From contig CM022676.1 of the NCBI GenBank assembly GCA_012295275.1, forward strand, positions 12,400,001 to 12,464,000: DNA of 64,000 nt, given 5' to 3'. Below are positions 1,911 to 60,000 of the stretch, one piece after another (positions within the stretch are counted from its first letter, which is position 1; each line of letters starts with the position of its first letter). The notes under the pieces were generated by a model. The model had not been told where the DNA came from. It searched no databases and worked only from the letters and a program-made list of their open reading frames with translations. A program made the position numbers and the translations under genes. This DNA comes from Chrysomallon squamiferum (taxonomy: Eukaryota; Animalia; Mollusca).

Positions 1911-4900
1911 ATTAAGCATGATGACAGTCAAAAAAACTGAAGCTCTGCATTTGTAGTTTATTTTGTTGATGTCATTTATCATGCGGAAAGTTCACAGAAG
2001 TGATTATTGTACATTCTGTTTCAACCTAAAACTTCCCTGCACTAAAACAGCTTGTAAACTCTGAATAATAATAATACATAAATAAATAATAAAATGTTGT
2101 TTTATTATTATTATTATTAATTTATTTTTTAAGTTAGTTAGTTATTTTTTTATTATAGATAATAAATTTATAACTGAGAGATCAATATGCAGAAGAAATT
2201 AAGAATCATCAAACCAATTACAAATGACCAAGAACAAATTCACAAATAATTCAGGAGAATAAATACACAGTTAAGAACAACAAGCACAGAATTAGTCAAA
2301 TAATTAAACAATAAAGAAGAAAAGTAATTGTAAATGGTAACAAATTCAAAACAACTGGCATTTTCAGGAATACCAACACCAAACTCAAAAACAACATTTT
2401 GAAAGTTTGAAAAGATTTACATGGATATTGTCTGTCATTAGCAAGAAAATTCAAGTCAACATCTGAGATACTTTTCTTTATAAAAGGCCAAAATGAAAAT
2501 TTGTTATGGAAAATCTCATTTCTGAAGTGTAAGAATGTCATCTTGCCATTACTGTACTTGAACAGATGATTAGTGGATCCTCCATTGTGATTCTCTGCAA
2601 ACTGCTAGTGGTCACAAGATGAAATGCAGCTACAATCATCTCAAGGATCACCTTTTTTCAGCTTTCCTTGATTTTAGTCTTCAGTGCCTCCTCAGCTGAA
2701 CATATTCAAATTCCATTTACCATTTCATGAGACATTGTATTGAATACGTTCAGAACTTGTGATAGCCATTCTCCTTTCTTTGTGAACTTTGGTGGTGCAT
2801 CTTCCAAATGTTCTTGAGTTTGTTGACTTTATATGAATTGCCCTATTGTGTTGAAATGTTTTGGTAATATATAAACATGTGCAGTCTCAGAGTACAGCAC
2901 AGTTTAGTAACTTATTTTAATTCTCATAACTGACTTTAGTGGTGCAGGTGTCAGTTAAATGTAACTACATTGTTTTATACTCTAGGAAATTCTACTGACA
3001 TCACCATTGAAAGTAGGGTGCTCCAAGATCAGAAAATTTCTCTCTGAGATCTGTGGGTTTCTGTGTTGTCCTTAAGTGAGCAGATAGCTTCCTCCACATC
3101 TTGAACATTATCTTGTGTTTATGCTGATTTAGGTGATAATTTCCCATATTCCTCTCAGTCCATCTGGTACTTTTATACCTTCCTGTTTATAAATCTCTTT
3201 ACCAATGATGTCACTTCTTTCCAAGAAATTCAGTTGTGTTTCTTGGTCCATGGCAACCATTGTGAGAAAAACAAATCAGACTTAACCCATTATCAGAATG
3301 TGAGAGTATCATTTTTAGTGTCATGTAATGAAAACTATTAGTTTTGAAAATGAATATTTAGTCAAATGTGATTTGATAAGTTCAGTTTTCTACTAATATC
3401 TTAATTCATTATAATTTTATTATTTTTCAGGTTTGTCTCTACAGATGAATGGATCATCATCGTATGGAGTTATAAGAGAGAGATATACTTTGTTTTGTTC
3501 TGTTTCACCTGTTGATGATATATCATCAAATGTTCTATTTAAATCATATGAAAATGGTGCTTTTACTTCAGTTTGCTTGGTTAGCACATCCTGTGTTGAG
3601 TTTTTTCCACGCTCTGGTTATAACTGTGGATGTTTTCACAGCAGTGGAGAAACTCGTGTCTACAACTTGACAATACAAAGTCTGAACATTACTGATGACA
3701 CTAAATGGAGATGTTATCATACTTCCAGTTTCAGTAAAGACTTTATCTTGAACGTTTACTGTAAGTACTTTTGATAAAACAAGTTTCTAGTCTTTCATTT
3801 TGCTTTGTGATATTCAAAGCAAAAGAATAGTTCAGTTATAAGCATTGGCACAGACCAAAGAAAGCAAACTATTTGAAATCTTTATTAAATTTCAGACCAC
3901 ATTTTGCTTTGTATAATCTTTGAAATATAAACAACAAGCTATGACACAATACTGAATAAAAAGTTGGAAACACAAATTCTTTGTTTGGTACTATAGACCA
4001 AACTGGTTTTGTTCTGAACAGCTACATAGTATGAACACCGGTGATTTGTAATTGCTGATCATACTTTTATAATAAGTTTCTTGAATTGAGGAGAAGTGCA
4101 CCAACAATTGTGATGATTTCAAGAATCCAAGAGTCTTACCTTTCTGGATGGCTGATGATGATATTTTGTTTTGGAGAGAAAAAGGTTGATATTGCAACAA
4201 AATAGTTTGCTTTACATATTTATTGAAATTTCCTTTAACACTTAAATGTTTAAATGCAGTGAGAAACACATGGTTCAGCCAGTATCTGCTGTTATAGATC
4301 AGCTAATTATTGTCTGAAATCACCAGCGTCAGACTGTCTATAAAAACTATATTTATTCCTTATCACTGTGTAGAAATGTAAGACAGAATCAATATAAGTT
4401 ATTCCTCTCTCTGATGTCCAATCACTTAAGTTGGAAACTGTTGTTATCTCCAAATACTTTTCCTCTTCACAATTGCCAAATGTGGTGACTCCAATAAACA
4501 GTTTGCGTACTCATAGTGGATAAAGAAACATTAGCTTTATATAAGATAAATTAGTATGTACCTGTATCTTTGTTCTTTATAATTCTCAAGCGCTTCAGTA
4601 AATAAACATTAGTTTAAGTTTATATATTTGAGTAATATAATGGGTTATTGAAGTTAATGAAGTGAGTGGCATTGATAATTTTCGATCTCTTAAAATAAAT
4701 ATGTAAATAGACACAAACACATTCATTAGATATGTAGTGTTTAGAAAAGGGTTTATAGTGTTTTCAGTTTTTTCATTTTATCATTTCAGTTGGTCCAGAG
4801 AATGTGACTGTCACTGGTAACAAAGCTGAATTTGACGCTGATGGTAAAACTATTTTAACACTGAAATGCACAACTTCATCATCCAGTCCCAATGTGACCT

Positions 4901-10900: not shown

Positions 10901-13900
10901 AAAACAACCCACATTTATGTCTGAAACTTGTACAAAAATAACAAAAATCAAATGTATTTAATATATATTATTGACATGAAAATTATTTAATGCAGTGTTG
11001 AAACAGTTGTACTATTTGATGGTAATAATTTGGTGACACTCTATAATGAAAATTAATTGATGTTATATATTTTGTTAATTCTGTGCGTTATTTGATGGAA
11101 GATGTCATCATTTTCATTATCTCATGTGTTCAACACTAAAAAAAGTATATGTAAAATAAAAGAAATCCATAAAAAAAAAAAAAAACAATCGTAAGAAAAA
11201 AGTCAAAATCCTAATGTCTATATTAAAGTTTATTTCCTGCTAGGACCTCCTTACATGCCAAGGTCATTCTCAGCATTTGGTTCTACAAGTGACACTGTAT
11301 TTCTAAAGTGGACAGCAGATTTTGCTGGAGGTCCATACACTCAGAGATTTTTAGTGGAATACAGAGACACAGATACAAAGTCTGACTGGAAACAACAGTG
11401 GTACAATGAACATGCTGAAAGAGATGAAGTTGTTTTTATGAACATCACAGGATTAAACTCAGGACACAAATATGTGTTCAGAGTTTTAGCTGAGAATTCA
11501 AGAAATCTCAGAAACCGCAGTCCATTTACATCTGAAGTAACCATAGAGACTAAAGGTAACATCTAATAATCATTTCAATTATCCAGAGAGAGAGAGAGAG
11601 AGAGACTGAAACTTTATTTAAATAGTTACAATTTTGAATTTTGACGATAATAATAATAACAACATTTTTAAAAAGTTTAAAGAAATTAACTGTAGAAATG
11701 GAGTTCTAGTATTGTAAGAAAAATGAAAAATACATATTTTGATATGTTAGCATATATATTTGAGTTTATTTATAAAATTGACTAAGTGTCCCTTTGGTAA
11801 CATCACATGTTTATATTAAATAAAAGAAGTTATTGCTTCTAATTTAAATTCTGTAAAGAAGTTTTATATTGAACAGCAATTTATCATTTATAAATAGTTT
11901 TTTTTTATATCTACAAATATGGAATGACAAATTTCTAATTTGTTTCTTGTACTGATTATAAAAGAAAATAAATGTTCTACATAAAGAGATATTTTACCTT
12001 CTCATGGACAGGAACAAACCGATACAAAATCTGATTATAAGCATGAATGTCTCATACCAGTTCATCTAAACTGTGATATAACCTGTTGATAAACATTCTT
12101 TGTAAAATCTGGTTATAAACATGAATGTCTCATACCAGTTCATCTAAACTGTGATATAACCTGTTGATAAACATTCTTTGTAAAATCTGGTTATAAACAT
12201 GAATGTCTCATACCAGTTCATCTAAACTGTGATATAACCTGTTGATAAACATTCTTTGTAAAATCTGGTTATAAACATGAATGTCTCATACCAGTTCATC
12301 TAAACTGTGATATAACCTGTTGATAAACATTCTTTGTAAAATCTGGTTATAAACATGAATGTCTCATACCAGTTCATCTAAACTGTGATATAACCTGTTG
12401 ATAAACATTCTTTGTAAAATCTGGTTATAAACATGAATGTCTCATACCAGTTCATCTAAACTGTGATATAACCTGTTGATAAACATTCTTTGTAAAATCT
12501 GGTTATAAACATGAATGTCTCATACCTTAGTTGTAAAATCTGGTTATAAACATTATTGTAAAAGCCTGTTGATAAACATTCTTTGTAAAAGCTGGTTATA
12601 AACATGAATGTCTCATACATTAGTTGTAAAATCTGGTTATAAACATGAATGTCTCATACCAGTTCATCTAAACTGTGTTATAACCTGTTTATAAATATAA
12701 TTAGGAAATAATTTAGCTTATTTAACAAATTATAGGTATTCTATTGTGCACTGATCAAAACACTGGCAATAATCTTGAATGTCTAGTGCCACGTCATCTA
12801 ACTCTGCTCATAAACATTTTAGTTAATTTAACAAACTTTAAATCATTTCTAAATTCATGATCAGTTTATGTTTTTTTTCTTCTTTTTAAAATAAAAATTA
12901 ATATTGAATAGAAATGAAAAAAAAAAAAAAAGGAAACATTTCAGTATTACTGATATTTCTTTTTAGAAAGTAAGATGTAATCATAATTGCAGTTAGTTGA
13001 ATTTGTGTTAAAATACTAGGTTAAATTTATTATTTGTTTCTTTCAGTAAAAGCGTCTTCAAGTGCAAATACTGGAGTTGTTATTGGAGGAGTTGCTGGCA
13101 GTGTTGTTGCATTAATAGTGATTGCAGTGATTGTGACAGTGATTGTGGCACGTCGAAGAATGATGCACAAGAAACGTGGTGAATGATTTTGTCATTGTCA
13201 TTAAAATATTGGATTCTTAATGCATATGGCATTTAACCTTTCTCACAAATTTTTGTTTTTAAATTTAAAATTTTAATAATAATGATAATGATAATAATGA
13301 TAATGACAATAATGATAATGACAATGATAATGATAATAATAAGAAAAGGAATTTATTGCTTGAAATGTTGATGTGTAATTGTATTGTGTATTCATATTTT
13401 TCTTTATAATTTTGTTTTGTTTAGGGTAAAATTAAATATAAAACCAATCATTGTGAACCCAATATATTATCTGTGAGAAAAAATGAAAATAAGACTGGCC
13501 GAAACCATTAGTATTGTTTTATTTCTCATATTCCTTTCAGATCATCTTGATTTATGAATATTGGTTCCTGTAACATCTCATACTTACTTGGCTAGAAATC
13601 TTAAACATTATTCCATGTGATAGAGTATTTAAGAAAAAAACAAGAAAAAAATATATGCATATGTATAGCTTTAAACTACAATTCCAAATGGTAATCATCA
13701 GGAAATACATATTAATATGATCAAACAACATTATATTATTATTCTCTGTTATAATTGTTAAATGGGATGGCTTAAATAAAAAGGTAGTTTTGAAGGATTA
13801 CATTTTTACTAAAAATCATTTATTAATTGTCTCTGTTGGTTAAAACCATTCTATGATGTGATTGGTCAGTACTTGCTGAACTTCTCTGTATGCAGTCAGT

Positions 13901-23561: not shown

Positions 23562-24273
23562 ATAAAAGAACGTTTTTTTTTTTTGCTGCATTTCCTTACA
23601 AAAATAAACCTATTTTAGGCAAAAAATACAAAATAGCCTAAAAAGCTAATTAACTAATTTATTTGAAGTGAAACTGTTTTCACTTTGAGATAACTATGAG
23701 ATCAGTGAATATGTCTGTTTTAAAAAAAAATAAATATATATATTCAGTTTAGTACAAATTATTTGGTCTGTTTCAGGTATCAGTATTTTTTTAATTATCA
23801 AATTTTCTGCATCTAGACAATCCAAATATACCCTACAGAGCACACAATTTCTGAACACAAAAATGTATCGAATACAAATTCTGAAAATGGCAAATAAATT
23901 ACATGTGCAGTTGTAAACATTAGCTTATATAAAATCAGTATTTAATTATTGTAAACTTCATTCCATTAAAATGTAATTAAATTATAAATTATAAAAATGT
24001 AATGTCTTTGTTTGTTTTGTTTTCTTGTTTTGTTGTTATTTTTATTTTATTTTTTTAAAAGAACTATAATGAAGAAAACAATCCTAATTATAATGGACAT
24101 ATTTTTTTCTTTCTTAGGCTCATGCTCAAGGACTTATTTATGTAGATCTTGACTTCAGTGGCTACAGTCCATCTAGGCAAGTCCTTGGAGATGACAATGA
24201 AAAAACAGAATATGCAAGTATAGATCATGGCAAAGTAGGAGAACCTTTGCCAGATGATGAACAAAATAATTAG
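407..24273 (+). CDS. Gene A: multi-exon IgSF type I receptor (leader, 7 Ig-like, FN3, TM, cytoplasmic NPxY/YxN/ITIM/ITSM); nephrin/sidestep-like architecture, putative inhibitory receptor
   Basis: GT-AG exons join in frame with phase-1 introns: 407-467, 3431-3760, 4790-5107, 6027-6323, 8232-8516, 8734-9003, 9405-9701, 10179-10514, 11244-11555, 13047-13178 (TM). Cytoplasmic micro-exons follow, to a terminal exon 24118-24273 ending TAG. A few junctions at 14.4-14.6 kb and 16.1-17.2 kb are ambiguous. Confidence 0.85.
1105..1230. mobile_element. Possible pogo/Tigger-like terminal fragment
   Basis: Begins CAGTGGTACCT like the TIR at 25486 and is locally GC-richer. No matching second end was found. 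Confidence 0.3.
1848..1909. repeat. (CT)n microsatellite
   Basis: Direct reading. Confidence 0.97.
3431..3760 (+). CDS. Gene A D1: N-terminal V-like Ig domain with 6 Cys
   Basis: tttttcag acceptor and T|GTAAGT donor. YTLFC...YNLTIQSLNITDDTKWRC Ig pattern. Near-identical copies at 38323 and 55230. Confidence 0.9.
4790..5107 (+). CDS. Gene A D2 Ig domain (C2/CD80-like)
   Basis: LKCTTSSSSPNVTFTWKN...IRCQVKN. Canonical splice sites. Paralog at 59808-60125 has the same 318 nt length. Confidence 0.9.
5085..5620 (+). repeat. 63-bp tandem repeat (~8.5 units) containing the D2 exon end and splice donor
   Basis: Unit cattgtactagacttgatatGTAAGTgttaattacactgttattttatattaaacagtttata recurs at 5088, 5151, 5214, 5277, 5341, 5405, 5468, 5526, 5589. 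Confidence 0.95.
6027..6323 (+). CDS. Gene A D3 Ig domain
   Basis: PPVISG...LNLSCVVTGGKP...CQCSAKH. Paralog at 60670-60966 is also 297 nt. Confidence 0.9.
6312..8070 (+). repeat. 34-bp minisatellite (~50 units, degenerate around 7480-7920) seeded by the D3 exon end/donor
   Basis: Unit actgtgtactGTAAGTgttcttattacactgttc. First two donor positions are 6324 and 6358. Confidence 0.95.
8232..8516 (+). CDS. Gene A D4 Ig domain
   Basis: NLTCSVTERGNPPADFVWYKNG...FRCVAQN. Splice sites tgtag / T|GTGAGT. Confidence 0.9.
8734..9003 (+). CDS. Gene A D5 Ig domain
   Basis: IDCTADSNPPNPTITW...HGTYTCKA. Splice sites present. Confidence 0.9.
9405..9701 (+). CDS. Gene A D6 Ig domain
   Basis: VTCEAFGRP...DSGTYQCLVDNG (DxGxYxC motif). 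Confidence 0.9.
10179..10514 (+). CDS. Gene A D7 atypical Ig domain lacking the canonical disulfide
   Basis: KWMKN...DTGQYRLEVCNNFTC. Splice sites tttacag / G|GTTTGT. Confidence 0.85.
11244..11555 (+). CDS. Gene A fibronectin type III domain
   Basis: GPP...VFLKW...GG...FLVEYR...ITGLNSGHKYVFRVLAEN FN3 signature. Confidence 0.92.
12026..12695 (+). repeat. 78-bp tandem repeat (~6.5 near-perfect units plus fragments)
   Basis: aaaatctggttataaacatgaatgtctcataccagttc... recurs at 12026, 12104, 12182, 12260, 12338, 12416, 12494. Confidence 0.95.
13047..13178 (+). CDS. Gene A transmembrane exon
   Basis: Translates VKASSSANTGVVIGGVAGSVVALIVIAVIVTVIVARRRMMHKKR: an uncharged hydrophobic helix with a basic stop-transfer. 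Not in the ORF track. Confidence 0.92.
14411..14432 (+). CDS. Gene A cytoplasmic micro-exon (GKDSEKG)
   Basis: Strong poly-T cag acceptor and GTAAGT donor. Needs a phase-correcting exon near 14574-14627 whose boundaries are unclear. Confidence 0.55.
15297..15335 (+). CDS. Gene A cytoplasmic micro-exon (EMDQAHPHILRNE)
   Basis: 39 nt, phase 1-1, homologous to the next two exons. Confidence 0.75.
15553..15618 (+). CDS. Gene A cytoplasmic exon with NPIY motif
   Basis: EMDPNPIYESSAGARPHILKNE, 66 nt, phase 1-1. Confidence 0.8.
16103..16159 (+). CDS. Gene A cytoplasmic exon with second NPIY motif
   Basis: EMEPNPIYVTSEQDSRILE. The donor is either GT at 16160 or GC at 16166. Confidence 0.7.
17760..17852 (+). 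CDS. Gene A cytoplasmic exon
   Basis: NDQSVKETRQMGGVGARAKEPKQQKVEEVK, 93 nt, phase 1-1. GC-richer island in an AT-rich intron. Confidence 0.7.
17966..18038. repeat. (CA)n microsatellite
   Basis: Direct reading. Confidence 0.95.
18483..18578 (+). CDS. Gene A cytoplasmic exon with YSKV motif
   Basis: DDLQNLYSKVKKMNESKTDKSAEKKKLKAQSS, 96 nt, phase 1-1. Confidence 0.78.
21940..21969 (+). CDS. Gene A Lys-rich micro-exon (EKKNKKGKK)
   Basis: 30 nt, phase 1-1, tttatag / G|GTAATT. Confidence 0.65.
22472..22513 (+). CDS. Gene A micro-exon (GGEEVVKSLRTGNA)
   Basis: 42 nt, phase 1-1, atcag / G|GTGAGC. Confidence 0.65.
23243..23340 (+). CDS. Gene A exon with three YxN motifs
   Basis: GDVYQNVELQNVYTNSAFDDNVYQNDKQKSDTT. 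Phase 1-0, GTGAGT donor. Confidence 0.85.
23403..23560. repeat. (TA)n-rich microsatellite region
   Basis: Direct reading. Confidence 0.9.
24118..24273 (+). CDS. Gene A terminal coding exon with ITIM + ITSM
   Basis: AHAQGLIYVDLDFSGYSPSRQVLGDDNEKTEYASIDHGKVGEPLPDDEQNN*. Phase-0 acceptor ttcttag. AATAAA near 24592. Confidence 0.88.
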   Translation, partial: AHAQGLIYVDLDFSGYSPSRQVLGDDNEKTEYASIDHGKVGEPLPDDEQNN

Positions 24274-34708: not shown

Positions 34709-34763
34709 ATGGCGCTGTTGAGATATTTACTAGTTTTTCTCACGCTTGTTAGATACTGTGTAG
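34709..34763 (+). CDS. Gene B leader exon MALLRYLLVFLTLVRYCV(G)
   Basis: Signal-peptide-like, with G|GTAAGA phase-1 donor. Homolog at 53007. Confidence 0.85.
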
Positions 34764-37800: not shown

Positions 37801-38926
37801 ACGATCTGATATGGAAGGCACTAAAGGAGAGAAACTTCTGTGTGAAAAGTCTCACTCATCCTTCATTGCACTATTTACCGGTCGCGCTCTTGAGCAGAAG
37901 GTCAAGAAGTTGAAAGAGACTAGTGATCTTGTGAGCATTACACAAGATGAGATGTCACTTGATGGTGTTTTCAGTAGATACAACTGCTGTAGAGATTGGT
38001 TTTATTCCCATGTGTAGGATTAGCCATCTGGTTATCAATATACGACTTACTACACATCATCTCTGTTGTCAACTGCCTCCCTCTCTTCAGATCAGCATTA
38101 TTAGCAGCACTGAAGAGCATCATTGCGTCATCAGAACATAAACCGGAACCTGCGAAAGAGGACATACTCTGCTGGAAAGAGAAGGAAATGGATGGTGAAA
38201 CTGAATCGTCATTTTGACAAAAATATAATCAAAAGGAATCTATGGCAGGGTTTGACAATATGGAGAAAAAATATTATTTGTGATCACGAAATTTAAATAA
38301 TAATTACTTTTTTATTTTTCAGGTTTATCTCTACAGTTGAATGGGTCATCGTACGGAGTTATACGAGAGAGATATACTTTGTTTTGTTCTGTTTCACCTG
38401 TTGATGATATATCATCAAATATTCAATTTAAGAAATATCAAAATGGTGCAATTACTTCACTTTGCTTGGTTAGCACATCCTGTGTTGAGTTTTTTCCACG
38501 CTCTGGTTACAACTGTGGATGTTTTCACAGCAGTGGAGAAACTCGTGTCTACAACTTGACAATACAAAGTCTGAAGATTACTGATGACACTAAATGGAGA
38601 TGTTATCATACTTCCAGTTTCAGTAAAGACTTTATCTTGAACGTTTACTGTAAGTACTTTTGATAAAATGAATATCTTCTCTTTCATTTTGCTTTGTGAT
38701 TTTAGAATCCAAAAATAATTCAGATATTAGCAATGACAAAGACCAAATGAAGCAAACTATTTCAAGTCTTTATTATATTAAATTTCAAAGTTATCTGTTA
38801 ATCATCAAGGCTTAAATAAAGTCAGATTTCCATGAAAACAAACTTACTTTTAGAAATCTCATTAATTTCAAATTAGTCAAAATAGAGGTTTTGTAGATAA
38901 TATCCCATTATTGCTACTACTGCTGC

Positions 38927-38966
<40 letters not shown>

Positions 38967-41900
38967 TTATTCTTTGTTATTTAATTTTATTCTTTTGTTT
39001 TTTAATTTATATCTATATCTATATATAATATAACATTTTAGGATTAAAGATTAATATTTTTCTAATTTTAAAATTTCAGTTATAGAATATTTGTGTCTAA
39101 TTTGAAAAAAAAGAGAAATGTTCTATGAAATTTAGAATGATTAAATAAGGATATAAATAGTAAGCAATTTATGCTGGCGTGGCCTGTAACAAAATTCCAG
39201 ATTATTTTTTTTTCACTTCCATCTAACACTTGAACAGAGAAAATAAAATAACTTTGTAAAGAGAAACTATAAGAATTGTATCTGATTTGAATTTCACCAT
39301 TCCTTTTAATTCCATTAATCAAACTTTAGTTTTTCAAAACAAACTGTATATAAGAAAATGCTGGAAACTATTTCAGTAAATAAATAAATGACTTAATAAC
39401 CTATACAAAATACAAAGTAATTTGACGATTAATTTTAAATGAAATGTTTTAGTATTATTGTTACTCTTAATTAAAATACTTATTTTTATTATAATTTAAT
39501 TTTCGAAAACAAAACAAAGTTGCTAATACTACTAATAATTCATAATAATTACTTACTGATAATACTATCTTTAGTATTTAATTTTTGTTTACCATCATAA
39601 ATCAGCAAGTTTATTACCTTAATATTTACTTTATGTCGAACTGAAAAAGCCAAAATTTTAAAATACATCAGTATATTATTTAAAACTTATTACATTTTCA
39701 GCTCCAGTGGCATCAGTTACTCTGGAGGTTTCAGGATCTACTCCAGGTTCTGTTGTTGTTGTGGAAGGAAGATCAGTTGAGTTCACCTGTTTTATACAAG
39801 GAGCAAAACCTGCACCCACAACATCTCAGGTGTCATGGTACAGACAAGACAAGTCAGGTAGTAACTTCACTTTACCTGGATCACCTGCTACACCTACTAC
39901 ACGTGACAGAAGTACATCTGTGAACTACACATACACTGCTGACAGACAACATAACAACGACAGTGTTTTCTGTACTGCTAGAAACAGTCTGATGGAGAAC
40001 AGTTCAGATTCAGATATCACATCCACAAACAAAATACAACTTAATGTGCAGTGTAAGTATTATTTTATAATGTTAAAAAGTTAACAATAGTAACATCTCA
40101 GAATGACAAAGTGATTGCTAAAATAATTTCAAAAAATTCTGGACTGATATTCAAAAGGATACTTTGTTATGGAGCCTAACATAAAACATTATGTGTGTGT
40201 GTGTATGAGTTTTTATAAGTTACTACATATATATTGTGTATATATTGTTAAGTATTCTTTTTTTCTCTGATTTTATATATACTATCAAGTGATCTCCTAT
40301 AAATCGAGTTTTATAAAGTGTCTTTCCATCCAGCTTCATTTTATATTAACAAAGTGATTAACTTTCAGGGCCTCCAGTGAGTCCAGTTTTATCAGGAAAC
40401 TGTCCATCCAGCTACATAAGTTCATCTACTACAGGAACATGTCACTGTTCTACATCTGACAGTGGGAATCCAGCAGGGAACACTTCCTGGTTTAAACCAG
40501 ATGGAACAAATACAGGAACAGATGACCTTGTACTAAACACAATACTACCACAAGAGCACAACACCAGAGATTACACGTGCAGAACACAAAATATTGTGGG
40601 ATCAAAAGAAATTATCTTTACACCAAAACTAGCATGTAAGTAAAATAAGCTGAACTCTGTAATATGACACCGATACCACTCATTTATCAAGTTTAAATAT
40701 TGTATATGACTATGCAACTCCAGTCAGAATTAAAATATTTTTCCTTTGAAGATTCAGATGCATTTTTTTTTAAATCAACAGCATATCTATGCACTTTTAA
40801 TGTATAACCATTGTGTTCTATACATAATAAAGATCAGATGATTTTTATGAACTATTTTTATACAAGGTACTTGAAATGTTAGATATACTAGGAGAAAAGA
40901 AATGGTTTAATTCCTTGTGGGCAAATCAGCTCAAATGCCTTTAGGTTCTATGAGAATTTCAAGTAAATTTCTTTAGTTATTTTTTACAGTGATTTAGGTA
41001 AGGCTTTCTTGTTGATTGTGAAATGCTGTCTATTGCATGTTTAATCATGTTAGTTTGCCTATTAACAGTTACTAAGGAAAAATAAGTCAGAAATTAGTTG
41101 TCATGGTTCTCGTTTTCATGTCGAATGATATTCCAAAACATGATAAATAATCCAATTAGGCACACAAGTTATGGATTTTATAGTTATGTTTGCAAATTAG
41201 TGGTATACTATTCATTCAAATAAAATTGAGCATATCTGAGCATCTGTATCACTACCAAAAATCGTACAGCTAATGAAAAGAGAAATTTGAAACTGAAGAA
41301 AACAAAAATTGAATATATGAATCTCACGGGTAATTAAGCACTCCATTCAAAATTTAGTACTTTCAAAAAAATGTGGATAACAAAATAATATAATACATTT
41401 TAGAATTGTGTAATGATCTTTGAACTTTAGACAACAAGTCATGATATTATATTGAAAAAAAAAAATGTTGGAAACACAATGACTTTCTTTTCGGGTCAGA
41501 ACAAATCTTGAAATTGCGACAAACAATTTAGTTGACATATATTTACTGAAATTTCCTTCACCATATATAGTGAGAAGCACATGGTTCAGCCAGTGTCTGA
41601 TAACGTTTCAGATATTTATTGTACCACCTGATTAGTTTAGGAAATATACTAGTTTGAATTTTTCATCAAACATGGAAAAGAAGATTCATTAGAAATTGAA
41701 CAAGCAGTAGCTATTTGTAACAGTTTTCTGTATTCACAAGTATTTGCAACCTTAATGTTTCCACTTGACCTTGAATATGACTTTTAAAATATCGATAGGC
41801 TAAAACGAAAATATTTCAAAATAGAAATTATAAATATATTTTATTAGTAAGGCACATATTTTGTGTCTAGCATACCCCAATCCCCACAAAAAAGACAACA

Positions 41901-44548
41901 ACATTTACTTCAATTAAGAGGCAATATTTTGAATAGATCCTCCAAACAGACCAACACTTTCATCAGATCCTGAACAGCCATGGCTAGAAAACACAGGAGG
42001 CTCTTTGATTTGTTCTTTACCTGACAGTGGTAAAGGAAATCCAGCAGCTGAGCTTTACTGGATTAGAAATGGATCTGACGTACAACACACAGGATTTAAC
42101 TTGTCACTGACACCTACAAAGGAAGACAATGGAGTCTGGTACAAATGTTCAGCTGGAAATCTCTTCACAGACACAAATGGACAACAGAGACCTGAGTCTA
42201 ATTCTCTTCAGATGAATGTGTATTGTATGTTGTTTATTATTTAATATATATATATATATAATTTTTTTGTTTATTTGTTTGCTGATCACCATTTTCACAT
42301 TAACTAAGTAAACAAATAAGTAAATAAATAAGTGTACATATCTTTTGAATATATATTAACTGCACTTTAATTTCACCTCTTTTACATTGTAATCAATGTT
42401 TTCTGTTTCCTCATATTTTAAATTTGTTTTACTTTTATTTTAATCTGTGTAGATGCTCCCAGAGTGAGAATTTTATCAGAGAGTCATATCAGAGTTGAAC
42501 TGGGAAAACTTGTGATACTACGCTGTACAGCTGACAGTAATCCAGACAGTGTTGTATTTGAATGGCGAACTGGTACAAAACACCTCACTGACAGTTCTCT
42601 GTTTCAAATCTCCTCATTTCAACAGTCAGACCAAGGAGAGTACACGTGTTCAGCAACTTCAAAAACTTCATTTAACACTTCAATGTCAGGATCTGCCAGT
42701 GTCATGGTTACAGGTAACTTTATTTACACTTTTTTCATGTGACCTTTGTTAGCAAATGCAACTGATTTTGTTATTGTTTCCATACCTGTCAGAATTAGCC
42801 AGTGTCAATTTATATATGCAGACTTTATTAAAATGTGGGGGTGGGTGTATCTATATATATAGATAGATACACGCACGCACACGCACACACACACACACAC
42901 ACAAACACACACATATACATATTATTCCCAACATTAAAATATTTAAATATATTGCTGATGAAAATTAAAACATAAATCCTTTTTCACGTTTTAGTTCTTG
43001 AATCAGCTCCTGAATGGTGTTACTGCACAAATGTGTTAGAAACTTCAGTTGATCTCAAGTGGAAGTACGACACAAACAAGTTCACTAGATTCACAGTTGA
43101 ACAACGCTTGTCTACTGAAGACCAGTCTACCAGTCTGCAAGTGTCAGACAATAAGACACACGACAAGACTTTTTCTTTACACATTTCTCATCTCAAGTCC
43201 AATTCTTCCTACCACTTTAAAATTTACTCTTCTGCAAATAAAAATGACAGCCGTTACTGTTTGACTCTGTGTACCACTTTAACAACAATAAATTGTAGTA
43301 AGTAAAACATAGAAGTAAAACATATTTGTTACAATACTTTTCTATAGATAAATGAGAATTCATACGTTGTGAAATTATTTACATTTTAAATTAAATCTTT
43401 TTAAATTATATTTAATATATCTTACAGATATAAATCGTTTTAAAAGTTGGTAGTTTTCACCTATTGATTTACTGCTAGCTTTGAAATATCATTATCAGTA
43501 AATGTAAGAGAATAAAGAAAATAAGACAGATCACTGAATTAAGTTCTATAATGTATTATTATAATTACTGTAGTAGGATCTTCGTCCCTGTCAACACAAG
43601 GGACTGGAATTGGAATTGGTCTTGTAGTAGGAATAGTTCTGATCTGCCTTGTTGAAACAATTATTCTACTCATCTTGAGGAAAAGAGGTTATACAATCCG
43701 AGGTCAGTTTTTCTCTTTTTCATTGATTTATTGATTTCTTTATTTACTTTTATTTTCTGTCTGTTAGTTTATATATGTGTGTGTGTATGTGTGTGTGACT
43801 TGTTCCTTTTCTTTTTTGTTTAACTGTTTCTTTCTTCATTTGCTTGATTAAATATAACTTAAATTATGATAATGTAACAATACTTATTTAGCTTGCTAAA
43901 TAAAATTTTATAACATATCCTGCAGACACAGACAGCAAGAATGAAAATGAAATGCATACGTGAGTATTGTTTTGAAATGTTTCCGAACAGTACTATGATA
44001 ATTTCTGATACTGAGGCATCTCTCTACTAAATTACCCGCAGCAGCTGTTTGACATATAACCAATATGTATAAAGTGATAAACTGTATTATATAACTATTT
44101 CACTTTAAAGCAAGTGTTGTTCTAAAATTAAATGCGGATAAAACATATATTAACTGATAACAGCATATGTACATTGTTGCATTAATAAAAAATACTTCCA
44201 TAAATTATGTGAATGTCTCGTTAATAAAATCATACTAAGCACAAATATACCTGGTAACACAACAATATACTGTTTCTCTTATATTGTACAGATACCAAGA
44301 TCTGTCTATGGATTCAGTCCAGGAAACAGCTGTTCGTTCAGGTAAAATAAGAAATCACGTGTTTTGAATATCGTTTTTCGATCCTAGTTTTATTAGTAAA
44401 ATTTCCATTAGAAAGTAATTAACTTGTTAATACTTAAAACGACTCAAACTGAAGTATGTTTTGAAATACAAGTCAAGACGACTGCGGAAATGTAAAATCA
44501 GATACCAGTTTTTCATATACATCAACGAACATTATGCAGCTACCCAGA

Positions 44549-45093: not shown

Positions 45094-45640
45094 TGTATGT
45101 ATGTATGCATGCATGTATGTATTTATGTATGTATGTATGAGTGCATACATGCATGTATGGATGCGTATATGTATATACGTGTTTTAAATTGAGAGAAGCT
45201 ACAATGAATTAAATAAATCGAAATTATCACCTAATAGTTTTTCCAAATTACGATAATCATTTAATTTAATAAATATTTTCTAGAAAATATAGCTGAATCG
45301 AAAAGAAAAATAGTTTTTCAAAACGTACACAAAGATTTATAGAAATACTAATACATTTATAGAACATTCTGAAACCTCTACTACTGAGTACGAGTGTCTG
45401 CAATCACGCCATGCACCTGCGTATGAAAACATAACCAATAACAAACGGAGTCCAGGTAACATTATTTATTGTCATACAGTTTTTCAAATTCCCATTTAGA
45501 ATTGTTTACTTTGATTTATTATCTAAAAGTTTATCCACTTACGACATAAGTCGACAATAAAATATTCATATGTTAAAATAAAATATACATTTCTAAAAAA
45601 AATCTCAAATGATTTCATTCGTTATTGGTTATCACCAGTC

Positions 45641-47413: not shown

Positions 47414-49920
47414 CATAGCGGGGAGAAACGTAAGCAGTTTAAAATACAATATATTTAACTATAGCAACGTGATTTATAAAGCTAAAGTCGTCAAGTTACA
47501 ATCCATCCAATCTAAGAATAGACATATAATTAATTAAAATACCTAACTACATTAATACGTAACGATATCAGCAGGTTCCAATTAATGGGTATGCGCCGAT
47601 TTTTGACCAATATTGCGTTATATCCAGCAATATTCATACAGCCATCATCAACAACAGCTACAACTACTACTCAGATCACGTCTTCTTCTATGTCAACAAC
47701 TAGTGATTCAGCCATTCCCTACCAGTACAAACGGTTACTCCCATCATGGCCCATGTAACACTGAGAAAATTTTGTGGCAACCAGAATATGTCGACCTGGT
47801 GGAATGATTTCACAGGACTAATTGCCTTAAACGGTTACTCAAGTGAACGAGCGTGTCTGTTGGTGCCATTCTGTTTAGAGGGACCAGCCAAGATGTGGCA
47901 TCAGGACTTAACAGAAGAAACAAAGAAAAGCCTGCCACTCCTGAAACAAGCCTTGAGAACCGGTTGAAACAATGTTCGGTTTTCCACTTGGCACTTTTCT
48001 CCATGTCACAGAAAACACTTGAGGCCGTGGAGGACTACATAACACGAATCCAAACAGCTACACAACATAAACGCCTATCAAAAGAGCATGTAGTAGCAAT
48101 AGCTGTAAATGGCCTTCAGGAGACTCTTCGACAGTGGGTCTACAATAAAGAGCCCACAACGCTTGAAGAAGTTAGGCATTTTGCACATGTAGCTAACCAA
48201 TCCACTATAAAGATGCAGCTGCTCAGTACGGCTAAATTGGAAGAAAAGGTGGGTCACCCGACGACATTGGTGCAGGCCTTACTAAATAACGAAGGTAATG
48301 CGGTAAACCGACTACAGCAGAGTCCAACAGGAAAATGCCACCATCTCAGGCATCTAGCCGAAGACGTTTCTGGCAACACTTTCCAGCCCCAAGAAACAAA
48401 GCTTACCACAACGAGAATCAGGAGCCTGCATAGCAAGCAGTATTTCGACCAGCAAACCAACCAAGATTCCAGCCACAATACCAGCGAGCTCACCAGGACA
48501 GACCGATGTCGGCTCCACTGCAGCGAAAAACCAGACAGTACCAGCACCCTCTACCACCCTAACTACGACAGCGATGTAAAGGATGTGGTGAGTATTGCCC
48601 TGCTTCTCCACCTCTTATAACCGTGTTTATTTTTTTCCTTGGTTATTATTTTGCAGTATAACTACTTTGGGGAATGCAGTCTGGGAGCAGTGGGGTCCAG
48701 TCTAAATACAAAAAATGAAAGAGAGATGAGCCGAGTTCCGAAGTGTTTATTGCTGGACAGACAAGTACGTTGTCCTTCTACATAGAATACATACATATAC
48801 AGTTTGCAACAATATAAGAGCTATACACAAAATTGATTCATACATATATATTAATTATGCATAATGGCTGTATACACAGGTAACAGTAAATAACTGTATT
48901 AGTTAATTGTGTATATATTGTTTCAATGTTTATTATTGTACATATAGTTATGAACGATTTGTAATATTAGATCAATAAAGTACATATTGCGTGTGTTCCT
49001 GTGGCACCAACGACATGTAATAAATAGCATTTTATAACAAACATAGATTAAAGGTACTTACCTAAATATAAAAATGAAAGAGAGATGAGCCGAGTTCCGA
49101 AGTGTTTATTCTAGGTCAGCCAAGTGCGTTGTAACTGGACACTTGAACCTTGAACCTTGAAACAAATTAACGTACTAATCAAAGCAAGCTGTTGTGAAGC
49201 ACGTCTACGACAGGCACACTTTCTGACAGGTCAGCGGGTGTGTCCGTCACAGAAAAGAGTTTTGGGTAAGGAACGAGGAAATGGGTTCTCGTTACGATTA
49301 CTGGACACAACGAGTACGTTGATGTTTTCCGCTCGTTGTTGTTTCCGGCACTTGTCTTGCTCGTTGAATATCTCATATTCGTCACCGGGTCCGTGTTGGT
49401 TGCGTCCTGTTTGTTTGTTCTCTTCTCGGCTGCTATTGATGTTTCTTTGTTATTTTTGGCTGCTTCCCTCTGGTCCAACAATTCCAAACTTTTTTTTCAT
49501 AATAATAATACTTTTTTTTGATACTGGACACTGCATGAATGAATGAAAAAGAAAAATTAACGTGCTAATTACTGGACACTGGTCTGTGCGTTATTTTATA
49601 GCACTCGGCTCATATCGTTACGTATTAATGTATTTAGGTATTTTAATTATTGTTTAGATTATTGCAGTAATCAATTTACTCGGGATAAGACATCTTTTGT
49701 CTACAGCGGTCCTTAATCGGCGCATACCCATTAATTGGAGCCGGCTCATATCATTACGTATTAATGTATTTAGCTATTTTAATTAATTATATGTCTGTTG
49801 TTAGATTGGATGTATTGTAACTTGACGACTTTGGCTTTATAACTGACGTTGCTATAGTTAAATATATTTTATTTTAATCTGCTTATGGCATGTCCAAGCG
49901 AGGCGTTTCCCCCCACTATG
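47414..49920. mobile_element. Composite ~2.5-kb insertion bounded by ~190-200-bp imperfect inverted repeats
   Basis: 47414-47601 is the reverse complement of 49715-49920, e.g. ccaattaatgggtatgcgccgatt vs aatcggcgcatacccattaattgg. Confidence 0.8.
47746..48620 (+). pseudogene. Frameshifted Ty3/gypsy-type gag fragment
   Basis: KFCG...WWNDF...LEGPAKMWHQDL and Q..E.VEDYITRI...AVNGL...EPTTLEE are capsid-like motifs. A truncated CKGCGEYC knuckle lies in another frame. No pol or LTR pair seen. Confidence 0.75.
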
Positions 49921-53006: not shown

Positions 53007-53061
53007 ATGGCGCTGTTGAGATATTTACTTGTTTCTCTCTTGATTGTTAGATATTGTCTAG
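53007..53061 (+). CDS. Gene C leader exon MALLRYLLVSLLIVRYCL(G)
   Basis: 55 nt, G|GTAAGT donor, homologous to the gene B leader. Confidence 0.85.
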
Positions 53062-54043: not shown

Positions 54044-57000
54044 CCGTCATTATTACTATTATTATTATTATTATTATTAGTTGATATTGCTTCTGCGATT
54101 AGTAACTGAAGAGCTTGCAACTAATACTAAGAAATATACGCTGAAATGAGTGGTAAACTGTAGAATTATCTTTATTTCAGTGGTACAACAGTCTCCATCA
54201 CGAAGTCCTCTCAATCACAGTCAGTACTATTACTGTCGAATTGTATCTGCTTTCAAAAGTGAAAAATCCGAGATGAGTTCTGTGATTCTTATTTAAAAAT
54301 ATTTTTGAATATCCCTTCCATTGTACCTCTCAGCAAATACCGGTTGCCATGCAGCTAGTTTGGAGAGCATATGCACTTTATCACAAAGTTAACTTTAAAA
54401 TGCGTTTTCCTCAGTAAATATTTTCCAAACCACAGACCTTTGAATTATTATAGCTTCGTAGTTTTCAAGATATTGGTCTGTTTTATATATCAGTTTAAAA
54501 GGAATTAAATACAGAATTGAAATTTAAATACATTTTTTCTTTCATTTTCTTTTAATTATTTATTAATATTTGTATTTCATTTTCCAGGACAACTAGTGTT
54601 TTTGTACATTGTTGATGAAAATTACTCAGAACTAATGCTGTCATATCCTTAGACTAGATATAATGAGTTAATATAAAAGTGTCAGAAAATGTTTTGTTTT
54701 CTTTTTTTCGCAGATATCGACCAACAGATTTAAATTCAGTTTCTGTTTACAATCTGCCATAGTTCTTCTTGCTATTTTTTAAACTCTATACAAAAATTTA
54801 CAAATGGGTTGTTAAAACACTCTATATGAAGAAACATTCTTTCAAGTGTTTATATTAAGTCCGTAATAAGGTAACCTAGATACTGTTTATATGCTCGGAA
54901 GAAACAAGTTTCGCCACAACATACACAATGGCGCTGTTTGGATACTTACTTGTTTCTGACCTCATTATTAGATATAGTTTACGTAAGTTTTCGAAACTAT
55001 TAGATTGTTATTCAATAAAAAACCTCATGAAACCTCAACTAAAGTGCCAAACGTTTAATACGACTACCACGTATGATAATAATATTAACCCTATACTGTT
55101 ACTACTACAACTACAACTGCGACTACCCTATCATTGATGAGAATCATTTGCAAACATTTACTAACTTTTTCTCTACAGCGATGTACTAGAATATTATAGC
55201 TTGAACTAATATTTTTATTTATTTTTCAGGTTTGTCTCTACAGATGAATGGATCATCATCGTATGGAGTTATAAGAGAGAGATATACTTTGTTTTGTTCT
55301 GTTTCACCTGTTGATGATATATCATCAAATATTCAATTTAAGAAATATGAAAATGGTGCAATTACTTCACTTTGCTTGGTTAGCACATCCTGTGTTGAGA
55401 TTTTTCCACGCCCTGGTTATAACTGTGGATGTTTTCACAGCAGTGGAGAAACTCGTGTCTACAACTTGACAATACAAAGTCTGAACATTACTGGTGACAC
55501 TAAATGGAGATGTTATCATACTTCCAGTTTCAGTAAAGACTTTATCTTGAACGTTTACTGTAAGTACTTTTGATAAAACAAGTTTCTAGTCTTTCATTTT
55601 GCTTTGTGATATTCAAAGCAAAAGAATAGTTCAGTTATAAGCATTGGCACAGACCAAATAAAGCAAACTATTTGAAATCTTTATTAAATTTCAGTGCAAA
55701 TTATTAATCAGAAAGGCTTAAATAAAATCAGATGTTCAAGAAGGCAAACTTACTTTTAGAAATCTCATTAATTTCACATTAGTCAAGATAGAGATTTTAT
55801 AGATTATCTCGTATTATTCCTATTCCTATTGTTATTATTATTGATATTATTATTATTATCATTATTATTATTATTATTATTATTATTACTGAGTTTACTT
55901 TATTCTAATTTATTTAATTTTTTTTTTTTTTTTTTATTATGTGTGTATATTATATGTATATGTATTTGTATTATATGTATATGTAATAGAACACTGTACC
56001 TAATCAGAAGAAATAAAATAAGGATACAAAAAATAGTTTTTTGATTTTTTCAGTATGACTTTCAATACCTTTAATCAAACTTTAATTACTCAAAACAGTA
56101 CATACAACAAAATGCTAGAAACTGTTTCAATAAATAAATAACATTATTAAATAACATTATTAATTAATTAATTAATTAATGATAATAATTTCTACAAAAT
56201 ACAAAGTAATTTGAAAATTAATTCTAAATAAAGTATTTTTTTTTATTATTATTTAATTTTCAATAACAGAACAAAATTGGTATTATTACTAATAATTCAA
56301 AATCATGTTAATTTCTGCTATCTTCAGTATTTATTTTTTGTTTGCTATCATAAATCAGCAAGTGGATTACTTTAATATTTAATACAACTCAGAATAGTAG
56401 TACTGCATATTAACATATTGTCAATAACAGCAGATTTAAAGTAAAAGTCGGACCTGAAAAATTTAAAACCATAATTCATTGAAGAATATATTCTCTATTA
56501 GAATGAGAGTTGCTTATTCATTATTGTGTGAAAATTTACAAATGTTGAATTGAATTTTGTACTGATAAAGTTCAGACATCTGTAAATTAAGAAATCTTCA
56601 ATGTGATGCAGATTATACATATTTAAAAATGAATTTGTATCTACAAAGCCAAAATATTATACAAATGAAAATGTCTTTTGTGTGTTTGATCATTAAAATA
56701 CATTAATACATTAATTAACAATTACTACATTTTCAGCTCCAGTGACATCAGTTACTCTGGAGGTTTCAGGATCTACTCCAGGTTCTGTTGTTGTTGTGGA
56801 AGGAAGATCAGTTGAGTTCACCTGTTTTATACAAGGAGCAAAACCTGCACCCACAACATCTCAGGTGTCCTGGTACAGACAAGACAAGTCAGGTAGTAAC
56901 TTCACTTTACCTGGATCACCTGCTACACCTACTACAGATGACAGAAATACCTCTGTGAACTACAGCTACACTGCTGACAGACAACATCAAGGTAACAGAG

Positions 57001-60000
57001 TTTTCTGTGCTGCTAGAAACATTCTGATGGAGAACAGAGGAGATTCAGATATCACATCCACAAACTACATACAACTTAATGTGCAGTGTAAGATTTTCTT
57101 TATATTACAATGTACACACTAGTAATACTACAAAATATCAAACTGGTAGTTAATAATGTTTTTAAAACTTTGTCATGTGATGTCAAATGTTCAAAAGCAT
57201 GTTATAAGTGTATTTCTATACAGTTTTATAACTCACTGTTTATTAACTTTCTAATATTTACTCAGTCTGCAATGATACTGCTTCTCACAAATTTGTTTAT
57301 ATATTTTTTTTTCGCTTGATAAATCTTTTTCTATAACATTTGAACTGATTGATTAATTTAGCATCTCCTTCAAATTCAGACTTTCCACCCAACTTTATTT
57401 TATATTAACAACGTGATTAACTTTCAGGGCCACCAGTGAATCCAGCTTTATCAGGAGACTGTCCGGACAGCTACATACGTTCATCTACTACAGGAACATG
57501 TCACTGTTCTACATCTGACAGTGGGAATCCAGCAGGGAAGATTTCTTGGTTTAAACCAGATGGAACAAACACAGGAAAAGATGACCTTGTACTAAACACA
57601 ATACCACGACTACACAACAACAAAAATTACACGTGCAAAATAGAAAATATTCATGGATCAAAGACAATTATCTTTACAGCAAAACTGGCTTGTAAGTAAC
57701 CTAAAGCAAACATAATGACACTGATTCCACTCAATTATCAAATACAAAATATTTTATGTACTTATCCAAACTGCAGTGAGAATTAAAATAATAACATTTG
57801 TTCTTTGAAGATTCAGATTTGTATTTTTATAAAAGCAATAGCATATATGAATGAACTTTCAATGCTTTAAACATTCTGTTGTTTTCATAACAAAGATCAG
57901 ATTAATTTGAAGATTGAGATTTAGATAATGCTCTTAAAATGCACATATTCCTTGATCTATTCTAGGAGAAAATAAATGGTTTTATTCTCTGTGGGCTAGT
58001 CAGTTGAAATGCCTTCAGCCTCTTTGACAAATTCAAGTAAATTTCTTTAGCTACACATCTGTAACATTAGATATATTTTACAGTGATTTAGGTAAGGCTT
58101 TCTTGAGCGTTGTGAAATGCTGTCTATTACTTATATTAATCATGTTCGTTTTCCTACTAAAAGACGCAAATTAAAACTAAGTCAGAAATGTGTTGTCATC
58201 AGTCTCATTTTCATGCCAAATTATATTCAACAACATAATAAATAATCCGATTAGACATAATTTTAAAAGTTATGGGTTTTAAAGTCATATCCTAAATTTG
58301 CGGTATACTATTCATTCAAGTAATGCTCAGGATATCTGAACATTTGCATAACTACAATAAGTGGTACATCTGATGAAAAGAGAAATTTTGAAAAACACTT
58401 TTTTTTTTTAGAAAACTTAACTCTAGTTGGTTATTAAGTACAATATTTAAAATTTACTACTTTCAGAAATGTAGATAACAAAAATAATACTATACTTTTA
58501 GAACTGTACAATAATGTTTGAAATTCAGACAAGAAGCCATGATATAATAGTGAATAAAATGGTGGAAACAAACACTTGTATAATAAATTTCTTGAATCAA
58601 AAATATTTTTGTGGTTGTCATTGCTCTCATTCATGTCCAGTGATATTCCACAACATAATAAATAATCCAATTAGACATAATTTTACAAGTTATGGATTTT
58701 AAAATTATTTTGTAAATTGGTAGTACACTATTCATTCAAATAAAGCCCAGCATATCTAAATATCAGTATAACTTCTAAAAATGGTATATCTAATGAAAAC
58801 AAATTTAGAAGAAAAAAAAAGAAAGAAAATGTGACTTTGTTATTAAGGACAATATTTAAAATTTAGTACCTTCAGAAATGTGGATAACACAATAAAACAT
58901 ATTAGAATTGTATAATCTTTGAAATATAAACAACAAGCTATGACACAATACTGAATAAAAGGTTGGAAACACAAACTCTTTGTTTGGTACTATAGACCAA
59001 ACTGGTTTTGTTCTGAACATCTACATAATATGAACACTGGTGATTTGTAATTGCTGATCATACTTTTATAATAAGTTTCTTGAATTGAGGAGAAGTGCAC
59101 CAACAATTGTGATGATTTCAAGAATCCAAGAGTCTTACCTTTCTGGATGGCAGACGATGATATTTTGTTTTATACAAAAAAAGTTGATATTGCAACAAAA
59201 TAGTTTGCTTTACATATTTATTGAAGTTTCCTTCACTTAAATGTTTAAATGCAGTGAGAAACACATGGTTCAGCCAGTATCTGCTGTTATAGATCAGCTA
59301 ATTATTGTCTGAAATCACCAGCGTCAGACTGCCTATAAAAACTATTTATTCCTTATCACTGTGTAGAAATGTAAGACAGAATCAGTCAGCAGATTTCACA
59401 TTCCCATTATAATATGTTATTCCTCTCTCTGGTGTCCCATCTCTTAAGTTTTAAACTGTTGTTATCTCCAAATACTTTTCGTCTTCACAATTGCCAAATG
59501 TGGTGACTCCAATAAACAGTTTGCATACTCATAGTGGATAAAGAAACATTAGCTTTATATAAGATAAATTAGTATGTGCTTGCATCTTTGTTCTTTATAA
59601 TTCTCAAGCGCATCAGTAAATAAACATTAGGATAAGTTTATATATTTGAGTAAGATAATGGGTTATTGAAATTAACGAACTGAGTGGCATTGGTAGCTTT
59701 TGTTCTCTTAAAATAAATATGTAAATAGACACAAACACATTCATTAGATATGTCGTGTTTATAAAAGGGTTTATAGTGTTTTGAGTTTATTTATTTTATA
59801 ATTTCAGTTGGTCCAGAGAATGTGACTGTCACTGGTAACAAAGCTGAATTTGATGCTGATGGAAGAAATATTTTAACACTGAAATGCACAACTTCATCAT
59901 CCAGTCCCGATGTGACCTTCACCTGGAAAAACCTGACCAGTGGTCAAGAGATTATTTCACAGAGTCCAGTCAGAGAAGAAGATGCAGGTGATGGTGGAAA

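Follow-up and report, generated by a model that had tools for sequence, protein, structure and literature searches.

The locus described here raises the question of why the outermost immunoglobulin (Ig) exons of three neighbouring receptor genes are so nearly the same. The genes lie in a stretch of 64,000 nucleotides (nt) of the mollusc Chrysomallon squamiferum (assembly GCA_012295275.1, contig CM022676.1, positions 12,400,001 to 12,464,000), hereafter the window, which is eukaryotic and AT-rich (~30% G+C). These paralogues, A, B and C, stand in tandem on the + strand and are made of Ig, fibronectin type III (FN3) and transmembrane (TM) exons. B ends in an ITAM (immunoreceptor tyrosine-based activation motif), and A probably in an inhibition motif (ITIM) and a switch motif (ITSM). 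Their distal ectodomains are near-identical (92-94% protein identity among the genes in the first domain, D1) and the remainder is diverged. The answer that we consider probable from the sequence is that short tracts of exons D1 and D2 of these three receptors of the Ig superfamily (IgSF) were copied between genes by non-allelic (interlocus) gene conversion.

Short tracts shared by the D1 and D2 exons

Genes B and C are homologous over one block (B 38292-41600, C 55201-59283), in which 375 of the 1596 aligned intron sites are different (23.5%). The sliding-window comparison proposed in an earlier note on this DNA gave the patches it had anticipated, with identities of 95-99% in D1 and 99% in the first 200 nt of D2 against 72-84% in the introns where these could be aligned. 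The note had placed four synonymous changes, one replacement and an indel in the first ~45 nt of D1, and exactly these were counted within the first 42 nt, the replacement being L>M and the indel 3 nt long. For the remaining ~285 nt it had claimed a single synonymous change; this change was found together with five replacements that it left unmentioned, making six substitutions. The fall of identity ~19 nt into the intron was seen as described, with the first 19 of 19 intron positions identical and 6 of the next 11 different. The D1 tract of B, which is partnered by C 55275-55578 and A 3476-3779, begins 42 nt within the exon and ends 19 nt within the intron, and such limits, offset from those of the exon, are not predicted by selection on the protein. 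In D2 the ~2 differences of the first ~200 nt and the ~20 of the rest were recounted as 2 (nt 1-200) and 20 (nt 201-351). Ahead of D2, the final 45 nt of the intron contain 8 differences; the intron behind it has 26 in 79 nt (33%).

Breakpoints were assessed by tests of our own (maximum chi-square over 2000 permutations, a 3SEQ-like walk, a permutation test of clustering and Fisher's test) in place of the GENECONV or RDP runs that had been suggested, and by these the breaks in D1 and D2 as well as the mosaic described below were significant. Maximum chi-square set a break at nt 42 of D1 (p=0.038) and at nt 200 of D2 (p<=0.0005); for D3 it gave p=0.056, which is not significant. Replacement changes in D2 numbered 1/145 before the break and 18/120 after it (p=3.5e-6).

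When all three genes were aligned, columns 58-525 held 35 B-specific, 11 A-specific and 3 C-specific sites, one three-way site and 4 gap columns. Five of the B-specific sites, along with the indel, fall in exon nt 1-42; the 304 columns that come next have three, and the 123 intron columns after them 27. The tract of 304 columns thus has 3 such sites, and its flanks, 164 columns in all, have 32 (Fisher p=7e-13). Inside the tract, gene A carries a 40-nt patch in which it departs from both B and C. The patch gathers 8 of the 15 A-C differences found over 473 nt and 8 of the 11 within D1 (permutation p=4e-4); compared with its flanks it has 8 A-specific and 1 B-specific sites versus 3 and 32 (Fisher p=8e-6), and the 3SEQ-like walk, of 35 up and 11 down steps, reaches a maximum descent of 7 (permutation p=4e-4). 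Six of its changes are replacements and two are silent, and according to the structural model it codes for the C-C' hairpin of the V domain with its strands C and C'. In the remainder of the D1 tract A, B and C are 1-2% apart, and with the patch excluded A and C differ at 7/434 sites around D1 against 103/1706 in their other introns (p=5e-5). As the tract is less diverged than A and C are elsewhere, the homogenisation of D1 appears to be younger than the A-C duplication.

Genes A and C, 91-99% identical in exons and introns alike, appear to be recent duplicates; a 3.2-kb part of C (55703-58907) that holds D2 and D3 has no counterpart in A, which is without both exons. In blastp against A, the Ig4 of B is 35% identical to D6 and its Ig5 30% identical to D7, compared with 92% for D1, and because of this disparity B may be a chimera of a C-like D1-D3 block and a distantly related backbone. 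In the course of events that we propose, such a block would have been placed on an Ig-Ig-FN3-TM-ITAM backbone, giving B, and at least three short conversion events, as many as the pattern seems to need, would have followed: one for the D1 tract, one for the 40-nt patch of A and one for the D2 tract, all of them later than the A-C duplication. The homology of every gene pair stops ~10-30 nt upstream of D1 (3401-3430, 38292-38322 and 55201-55229), and blastn of the regions upstream of A, B and C found no homology except a leader-exon repeat. This common limit points to the D1 acceptor as a boundary of duplication or recombination that the genes share. The A-C pair too, although so alike otherwise, loses its homology just upstream of D1.

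Conversion weighed against constraint, assembly and crossing-over

The proportions of differing silent (pS) and replacement (pN) sites were obtained as Nei-Gojobori counts. Between B and C they were 0.364 (4/11) and 0.032 in D1 codons 1-15, 0.017 (1/57.8) and 0.022 (5/224) in D1 codons 16-110, 0.019 and 0.007 in D2 codons 1-66, 0.082 (2.5/30.5) and 0.146 (17.5/119.5) in D2 codons 67-116, and 0.138 (8.5/61.7) and 0.118 in D3. The earlier note had read its sharp patches of silent identity as recent conversion and not as purifying selection alone, a view to which these counts lend strong support in D1 and adequate support in the 5' part of D2. The tracts were not consistently richer in G+C (0.34 in the D1 tract, 0.46 in the D2 5' part, 0.41 in D3), and composition is uninformative as to GC-biased conversion.

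As near-identical exons can mislead an assembly, the contigs of three DNA runs from two studies (X1, X2 and X3) and of one RNA run (X7) were compared with gene B at 97% likeness. A 1564-nt contig of X1 and a 1203-nt contig of X2 extend from the unique DNA upstream of B to 38384, and among the differences listed, their mismatches to the window lie only upstream of the D1 exon; we accordingly accept that D1 has a genuine B-type 5' end joined to the DNA of B. Contigs covering 39205-39740 and 39072-39743 join intron 1 to the start of D2, and others covering 39882-40367 and 39961-40359 run from the diverged 3' part of this exon into intron 2. The k-mer depth of the D2 tract was 299, 24.6 and 22.1 in X1, X2 and X3 versus ~60-76, 6.8 and 5.9 in neighbouring single pieces (~3.5-4x), and that of the D1 tract piece in X2 was 15.8 versus 4.6-9.7; with the tracts ~3-4x as deep as their flanks, it is evident that in other animals, too, these stretches are common to several genes. 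The runs that cover 38490, 38502, 38510 and 39835 showed there the C-type letter and no other, and the B-linked contigs of X1 and X2 have the C-type letter at 39690. The B-specific letters of the window within the tracts may therefore be private variants or errors, in which case B and C would be still more alike. D2 was not covered at this likeness by any RNA contig of X7, from which we draw no conclusion.

Could purifying selection alone, acting on the protein or on exonic splicing signals, have kept the exons alike with no transfer between the genes? Exons are generally more alike than introns, and in D3 too pS lies under the intron divergence, but we regard this account as very improbable. 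The two tracts differ at 2 of ~111 silent sites, far fewer than the introns (Fisher p=3e-10), D3 (p=0.004) or the D2 3' part and D3 together (p=0.004), and the rest of D1 differs from its first 15 codons in the same respect (p=0.0017). Replacement changes in the D1 tract are as rare as silent ones (pN/pS ~1.3), which speaks for recent common ancestry and not for constraint; ratios of 0.86-1.8 in D3 (~0.9) and the D2 3' part indicate weakly constrained proteins, so an identity of 98-99% cannot come from constraint. The A-C pair served as a control, with pS 0.082 (27/328.7) and pN 0.033 in exons D4-D8 and 0.058 (107/1850) in introns; as silent sites are not slower than introns here, the tracts are not explained by purifying selection. 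Nor would it carry identity 19 nt into an intron and omit the first 42 nt of the exon. A second account, limited to D2, is somewhat unlikely in our view but carries real weight: nt 200 would mark a change of selective regime, diversifying or relaxed in the C-terminal third, and the whole of D2 may be homogenised. The D2 break rests on replacement changes only, and diversifying selection may therefore contribute there; 17.5 of the 20 changes in the 3' part are replacements, multi-base changes cluster at nt 252-258 and 302-304, and pS is below that of the introns (p=0.03) and not significantly different from that of the 5' part. Against this, a pN/pS of 1.8 does not exceed 1 significantly (p=0.37), intron 2 right after D2 is a third diverged, and the 3' part is like D3 in both pS and pN, so that it may be either plain unconverted background or a segment under diversifying selection.

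An artefact of assembly or polishing, in which one paralogue was assembled or corrected with reads from another, giving rise to the identity patches or the mosaic, is disfavoured and seems to us quite improbable. That the contigs of the other runs stop within D1 at 38384, and that four places show only C-type letters, would suit it; polishing, however, cannot make sequence that is 20% diverged identical, and the discrepant letters bring B and C closer and not further apart. Two runs from different studies tie the B-type 5' end of D1 to the upstream DNA of B, other contigs connect intron 2 of B with a D2 whose 3' part is of B type, and the depth of the tracts in X2 and X3 is that expected of genuine sharing by several genes. 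As to the chimeric assembly that the earlier note had named as a danger, these independent contigs confirm the junctions of B but do not bridge the exons themselves. Reciprocal unequal crossing-over, finally, could have made recombinant genes with no non-reciprocal conversion of short tracts. B as a whole does look recombinant, with a C-like 5' block on another backbone, and A is without D2 and D3 through a 3.2-kb deletion. The tracts of 304, 211 and 40 nt nevertheless each lie between stretches of diverged sequence only a few hundred bases apart, which calls for two exchanges per tract and so defines conversion; gene order and introns are also intact, and we hold crossing-over by itself to be highly unlikely.

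Several points tell against gene conversion as set out above, or limit it. The break at nt 200 of D2 is not significant at silent sites (1/53 vs 2/30 when rounded, from 2.5/30.5, p=0.3), the silent sites of the D2 5' part compared with those of the D2 3' part and D3 give p=0.056, and in the D2 3' part pN exceeds pS (0.146 vs 0.082). The pS of D3 (0.138) is itself somewhat under the intron value (p=0.06), and the contrast between exons and introns may for this reason be due in part to alignment error, to faster AT-rich introns or to older conversion. Short-read contigs break within the identical stretches and none spans a whole exon with both introns; the read check covered gene B, and the 40-nt patch of A stands on the assembly. 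The basis is one assembly and three paralogues, from which the direction and the donor of the events cannot be told. The ITIM/ITSM exon is assigned to A by position and colinearity, and the tail of C lies outside the window.

Signalling tails, the D1 fold and known paired receptors

The exon that holds the ITIM and ITSM reads ...GLIYVDLDFSG...KTEYASID... up to its stop codon. A protein of Haliotis cracherodii annotated as 'hemicentin-2-like isoform X4' (XP_071095565.1; 1527 aa), with a D1-like domain, many Ig domains, FN3 and a TM segment, has a tail with an ITIM and an ITSM that ends in ...LLYVSVDFSG...TEYSGID... and is 47% identical to this exon over 32 residues (E=0.002), and it matches D1, D6, FN3 and the ITIM/ITSM exon of A in the same order. 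No further receptor exon was seen on the + strand between the TM exon of A and this one. Because of its position and the colinearity with the Haliotis protein, the exon is probably the last of gene A. Conversion would then keep the membrane-distal V-like domain of the ITAM receptor matched to that of its ITIM/ITSM-bearing neighbours, and A, B and C may act as paired activating and inhibitory receptors for one common putative ligand. Such a paired function is plausible, and the label 'ligand-binding', which the earlier note gave to the D1 and D2 exons, is best taken as presumptive.

The AlphaFold model of D1, built from a 9-sequence alignment, has a predicted local distance difference test score (pLDDT) of 89.7, and Foldseek matched it to heavy-chain variable (VH) domains of antibodies with TM-scores of 0.80-0.83 and E about 1e-6. 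Residues C21 and C93 are invariant in the alignment, and the usual Trp of the C strand is replaced by Phe. D1 is accordingly modelled as a V-set immunoglobulin fold with a predicted B-F disulphide. Among Pfam families it had no match at E<=0.1, word-based protein searches with D1 gave none, and of 177 pattern matches in metagenome contigs none was confirmed. The search of 1.84 billion proteins by phmmer found 13 relatives of 24-40% identity; six of these were examined and five could be named, four being uncharacterised proteins of Gigantopelta aegis and one the 'hemicentin-2-like' protein of Haliotis. These are sequence relatives of D1, distant and uncharacterised; those with a name are all molluscan and suit a gastropod as the probable source. 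Neither Pfam nor the five named phmmer hits showed homology of D1 to the vertebrate CEACAM or Siglec families.

Innate immune gene clusters of vertebrates (CEACAM, Siglec, KIR/LILR) are characterised by pairs of activating and inhibitory receptors that evolve in concert, and this is usually read as the trace of pathogens exploiting inhibitory receptors. Activating Siglecs are without an ITAM of their own and signal via DAP12; unlike in these, the ITAM of gene B sits in the receptor tail. The earlier note had likened the locus to pairs of the Siglec-5/14 type, a comparison that holds for the conversion of distal Ig exons in pairs, but the CEACAM1/CEACAM3 pair comes closer, as it has the ITAM in its own tail. 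In the available parts of the reports on mammals and Xenopus, the latter are clustered IgSF genes with an ITIM/ITSM tail on one member and an ITAM tail on the other, the N-terminal V-like exon is kept alike by conversion or recombination, and the activating member arose by domain recombination (PMC2832619, PMC5112662). One of these reports, in the portion seen, describes stretches of CEACAM pairs with no synonymous change and a similarity that peaks at the N-domain exon and reaches barely into the introns (PMC2832619). The A, B and C proteins are, unlike CEACAMs, much longer (5 to 9 or more Ig domains and FN3), and their tracts are shorter and start inside the exon. Siglec-5/Siglec-14 and Siglec-11/Siglec-16 are likewise described, in excerpts of the sources, as adjoining inhibitory and activating genes with repeatedly converted distal Ig exons (PMC5701461, PMC4042635); the converted regions there are given as ~2 kb, including introns and upstream DNA (PMC5701461), compared with 40-300 nt in the mollusc.

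Among invertebrates, the Alr genes of Hydractinia also form an IgSF cluster with V-like N-terminal domains and an ITAM or ITIM, but they belong to a cnidarian allorecognition complex and have 1-3 domains; conversion within the cluster is, in the accessible text, suggested rather than demonstrated tract by tract (PMC9546547). The oyster CgIgIT2 is, by the extract available, a molluscan IgSF immune molecule with five Ig domains, a TM segment and an ITAM (PMC11999971). The FREPs of Biomphalaria are molluscan IgSF members too, and their literature invokes gene conversion (PMC7588048, in part), but they are described there as secreted lectins with a fibrinogen domain. In the sections of the CgIgIT2 and FREP texts at hand, neither a paired ITIM partner nor homogenisation of exon tracts is described, and a search of the literature outside subscription journals found no report of a molluscan paired receptor with conversion tracts. 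Conversion in paired receptors is already known (CEACAM1/3, Siglec pairs), and what would be new is the molluscan example. A signature made up of an ITAM gene beside a likely ITIM/ITSM gene, a V-like distal domain, short conversion tracts and domain grafting would, in a mollusc, make the origin and generality of paired receptors testable outside deuterostomes; if true, the decoy or counterbalance arms race of CEACAMs and Siglecs would have arisen convergently in a lophotrochozoan. We offer the fuller picture tentatively, as a possibility falling a little short of even: a gastropod paired-receptor system convergent with that of vertebrates, its ITAM member made by grafting three distal Ig exons from an ITIM/ITSM-bearing neighbour to another backbone, with ongoing short-tract conversion that varies among individuals and would keep the V-domain like that of the inhibitory genes, and a C-C' hairpin that would contact a ligand or pathogen.

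Gene structures and repeats in the window

The exons of A, B and C are of phase 1 with one Ig or FN3 domain each, and their limits (Table 1) were set by splice sites.

Table 1. Positions in the window of the exons, motifs and candidate conversion tracts of genes A, B and C, with what each assignment draws on
Feature	Position	Strand	Basis
Gene A exon D1	3431..3760	+	three-gene alignment
Mosaic patch in A D1, 40 nt	3532..3571	+	8 sites at which A differs from B and C, B = C
Gene A TM exon (predicted)	13047..13178	+	hydrophobicity 3.1, then RRRMMHKKRG
Terminal exon with ITIM (LIYVDL) and ITSM (TEYASI), probably of gene A	24118..24273	+	strong acceptor, open frame to TAG
Gene B leader (signal-peptide) exon (predicted)	34709..34763	+	ATG, hydrophobic stretch, phase-1 donor G/gtaag
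Gene B exon D1, V-set-like Ig, phase 1 at both ends	38323..38649	+	splice sites cag/GT and T/gtaagt; open frame
Candidate D1 conversion tract in B, widest limits	38365..38668	+	304 nt, 6 B-C differences
Candidate D2 5' conversion tract in B, widest limits	39691..39901	+	2 differences in 211 nt; partner C 56726-56936
Gene B exon D2, Ig domain	39702..40052	+	splice sites; Pfam Ig_3, C2-set_2 and I-set below or near cut-offs
Gene B exon D3	40369..40635	+	not homogenised; serves as internal comparison
Gene B membrane-proximal Ig, Ig and FN3 exons	41938..43306	+	Pfam Ig_3, Ig_2, fn3; blastp
Gene B TM exon, RNA-covered part	43611..43700	+	hydrophobic stretch, then RKRG; RNA contig
Gene B ITAM (YECL, 7 residues, YENI)	45389..45433	+	motif scan; acceptor and reading frame
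Gene C exon D1	55230..55559	+	aligned with B and A
Gene C exon D2	56737..57087	+	B-C alignment
Gene C exon D3	57428..57691	+	B-C alignment

In gene A, D1 is followed directly by D4-D8, then by another Ig exon and an FN3 exon, and in gene C, D4-D8 come after D3, beyond which the gene runs past the end of the window. RNA contigs of one run gave the GT..AG joints 40635>41937, 42711>42993, 43700>43924 and 43959>44292, which confirm part of the structure of B. A glutamate lies inside the predicted TM segment of B (…LICLVETIILLIL…, 43611-43700), despite the receptor's own ITAM. Upstream of C there are two leader-like exons (ATGGCGCTGTT…, phase-1 donor) at 53007-53061 and 54928-54982, i.e. 2.2 kb and 0.25 kb ahead of D1, and the distal one resembles the leader of B, the first 23 nt being identical. 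No leader exon like those of B or C was seen in the 3.4 kb upstream of A.

A 401-nt RNA contig of X7 (38349-38649) runs from an upstream exon through D1 and splices directly to a D4 exon. Its D1 has the A/C-type 5' end and the C-type letters at 38490 and 38502, which may reflect either a gene A whose D1 is C-like in the animal sampled or a gene C skipping D2 and D3. Over the Ig-Ig-FN3 exons of B (41738-43339) the summed k-mer depth in X1 was 630-1707 versus ~40-110 in flanking bins (~20-30x), with similar ratios in X2 and X3, and DNA contigs depart from the window right after the exon end, leaving loose ends at 43307 in three runs. Given this depth and these ends, many other genes seem to carry near-identical exons with different introns. 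Since members of the family have near-identical exons, they will be confused with one another in short-read assemblies and in RNA quantification.

Besides the exons, broken open reading frames (ORFs) of a DDE_3 (Tc1/mariner-like) transposase lie between A and B at 30669-31341 on the - strand (weak Pfam match, E=0.002). Between B and C there is an ORF of 257 aa without a Pfam family (47847-48620, + strand), enclosed by an inverted repeat (47431-47601 vs 49715-49885). Intron 3 of C holds an internal duplication of ~380 nt with 76% identity (58192-58576 vs 58614-58977), and the intron of A after the FN3 exon a 78-nt tandem repeat (12026-12695; 6.4 copies, 99% matches). The introns after D4 and D5 in both A (5075-5615 and 6312-8076) and C (60093-60279 and 60955-62206) start with minisatellites of 63-nt and 34-nt units in up to 52 copies. 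Each unit contains a copy of the exon's last bases and of its splice donor (…GATAT/GTAAGTGT and …GTGTACT/GTAAGT), so that these arrays carry dozens of potential donor sites.

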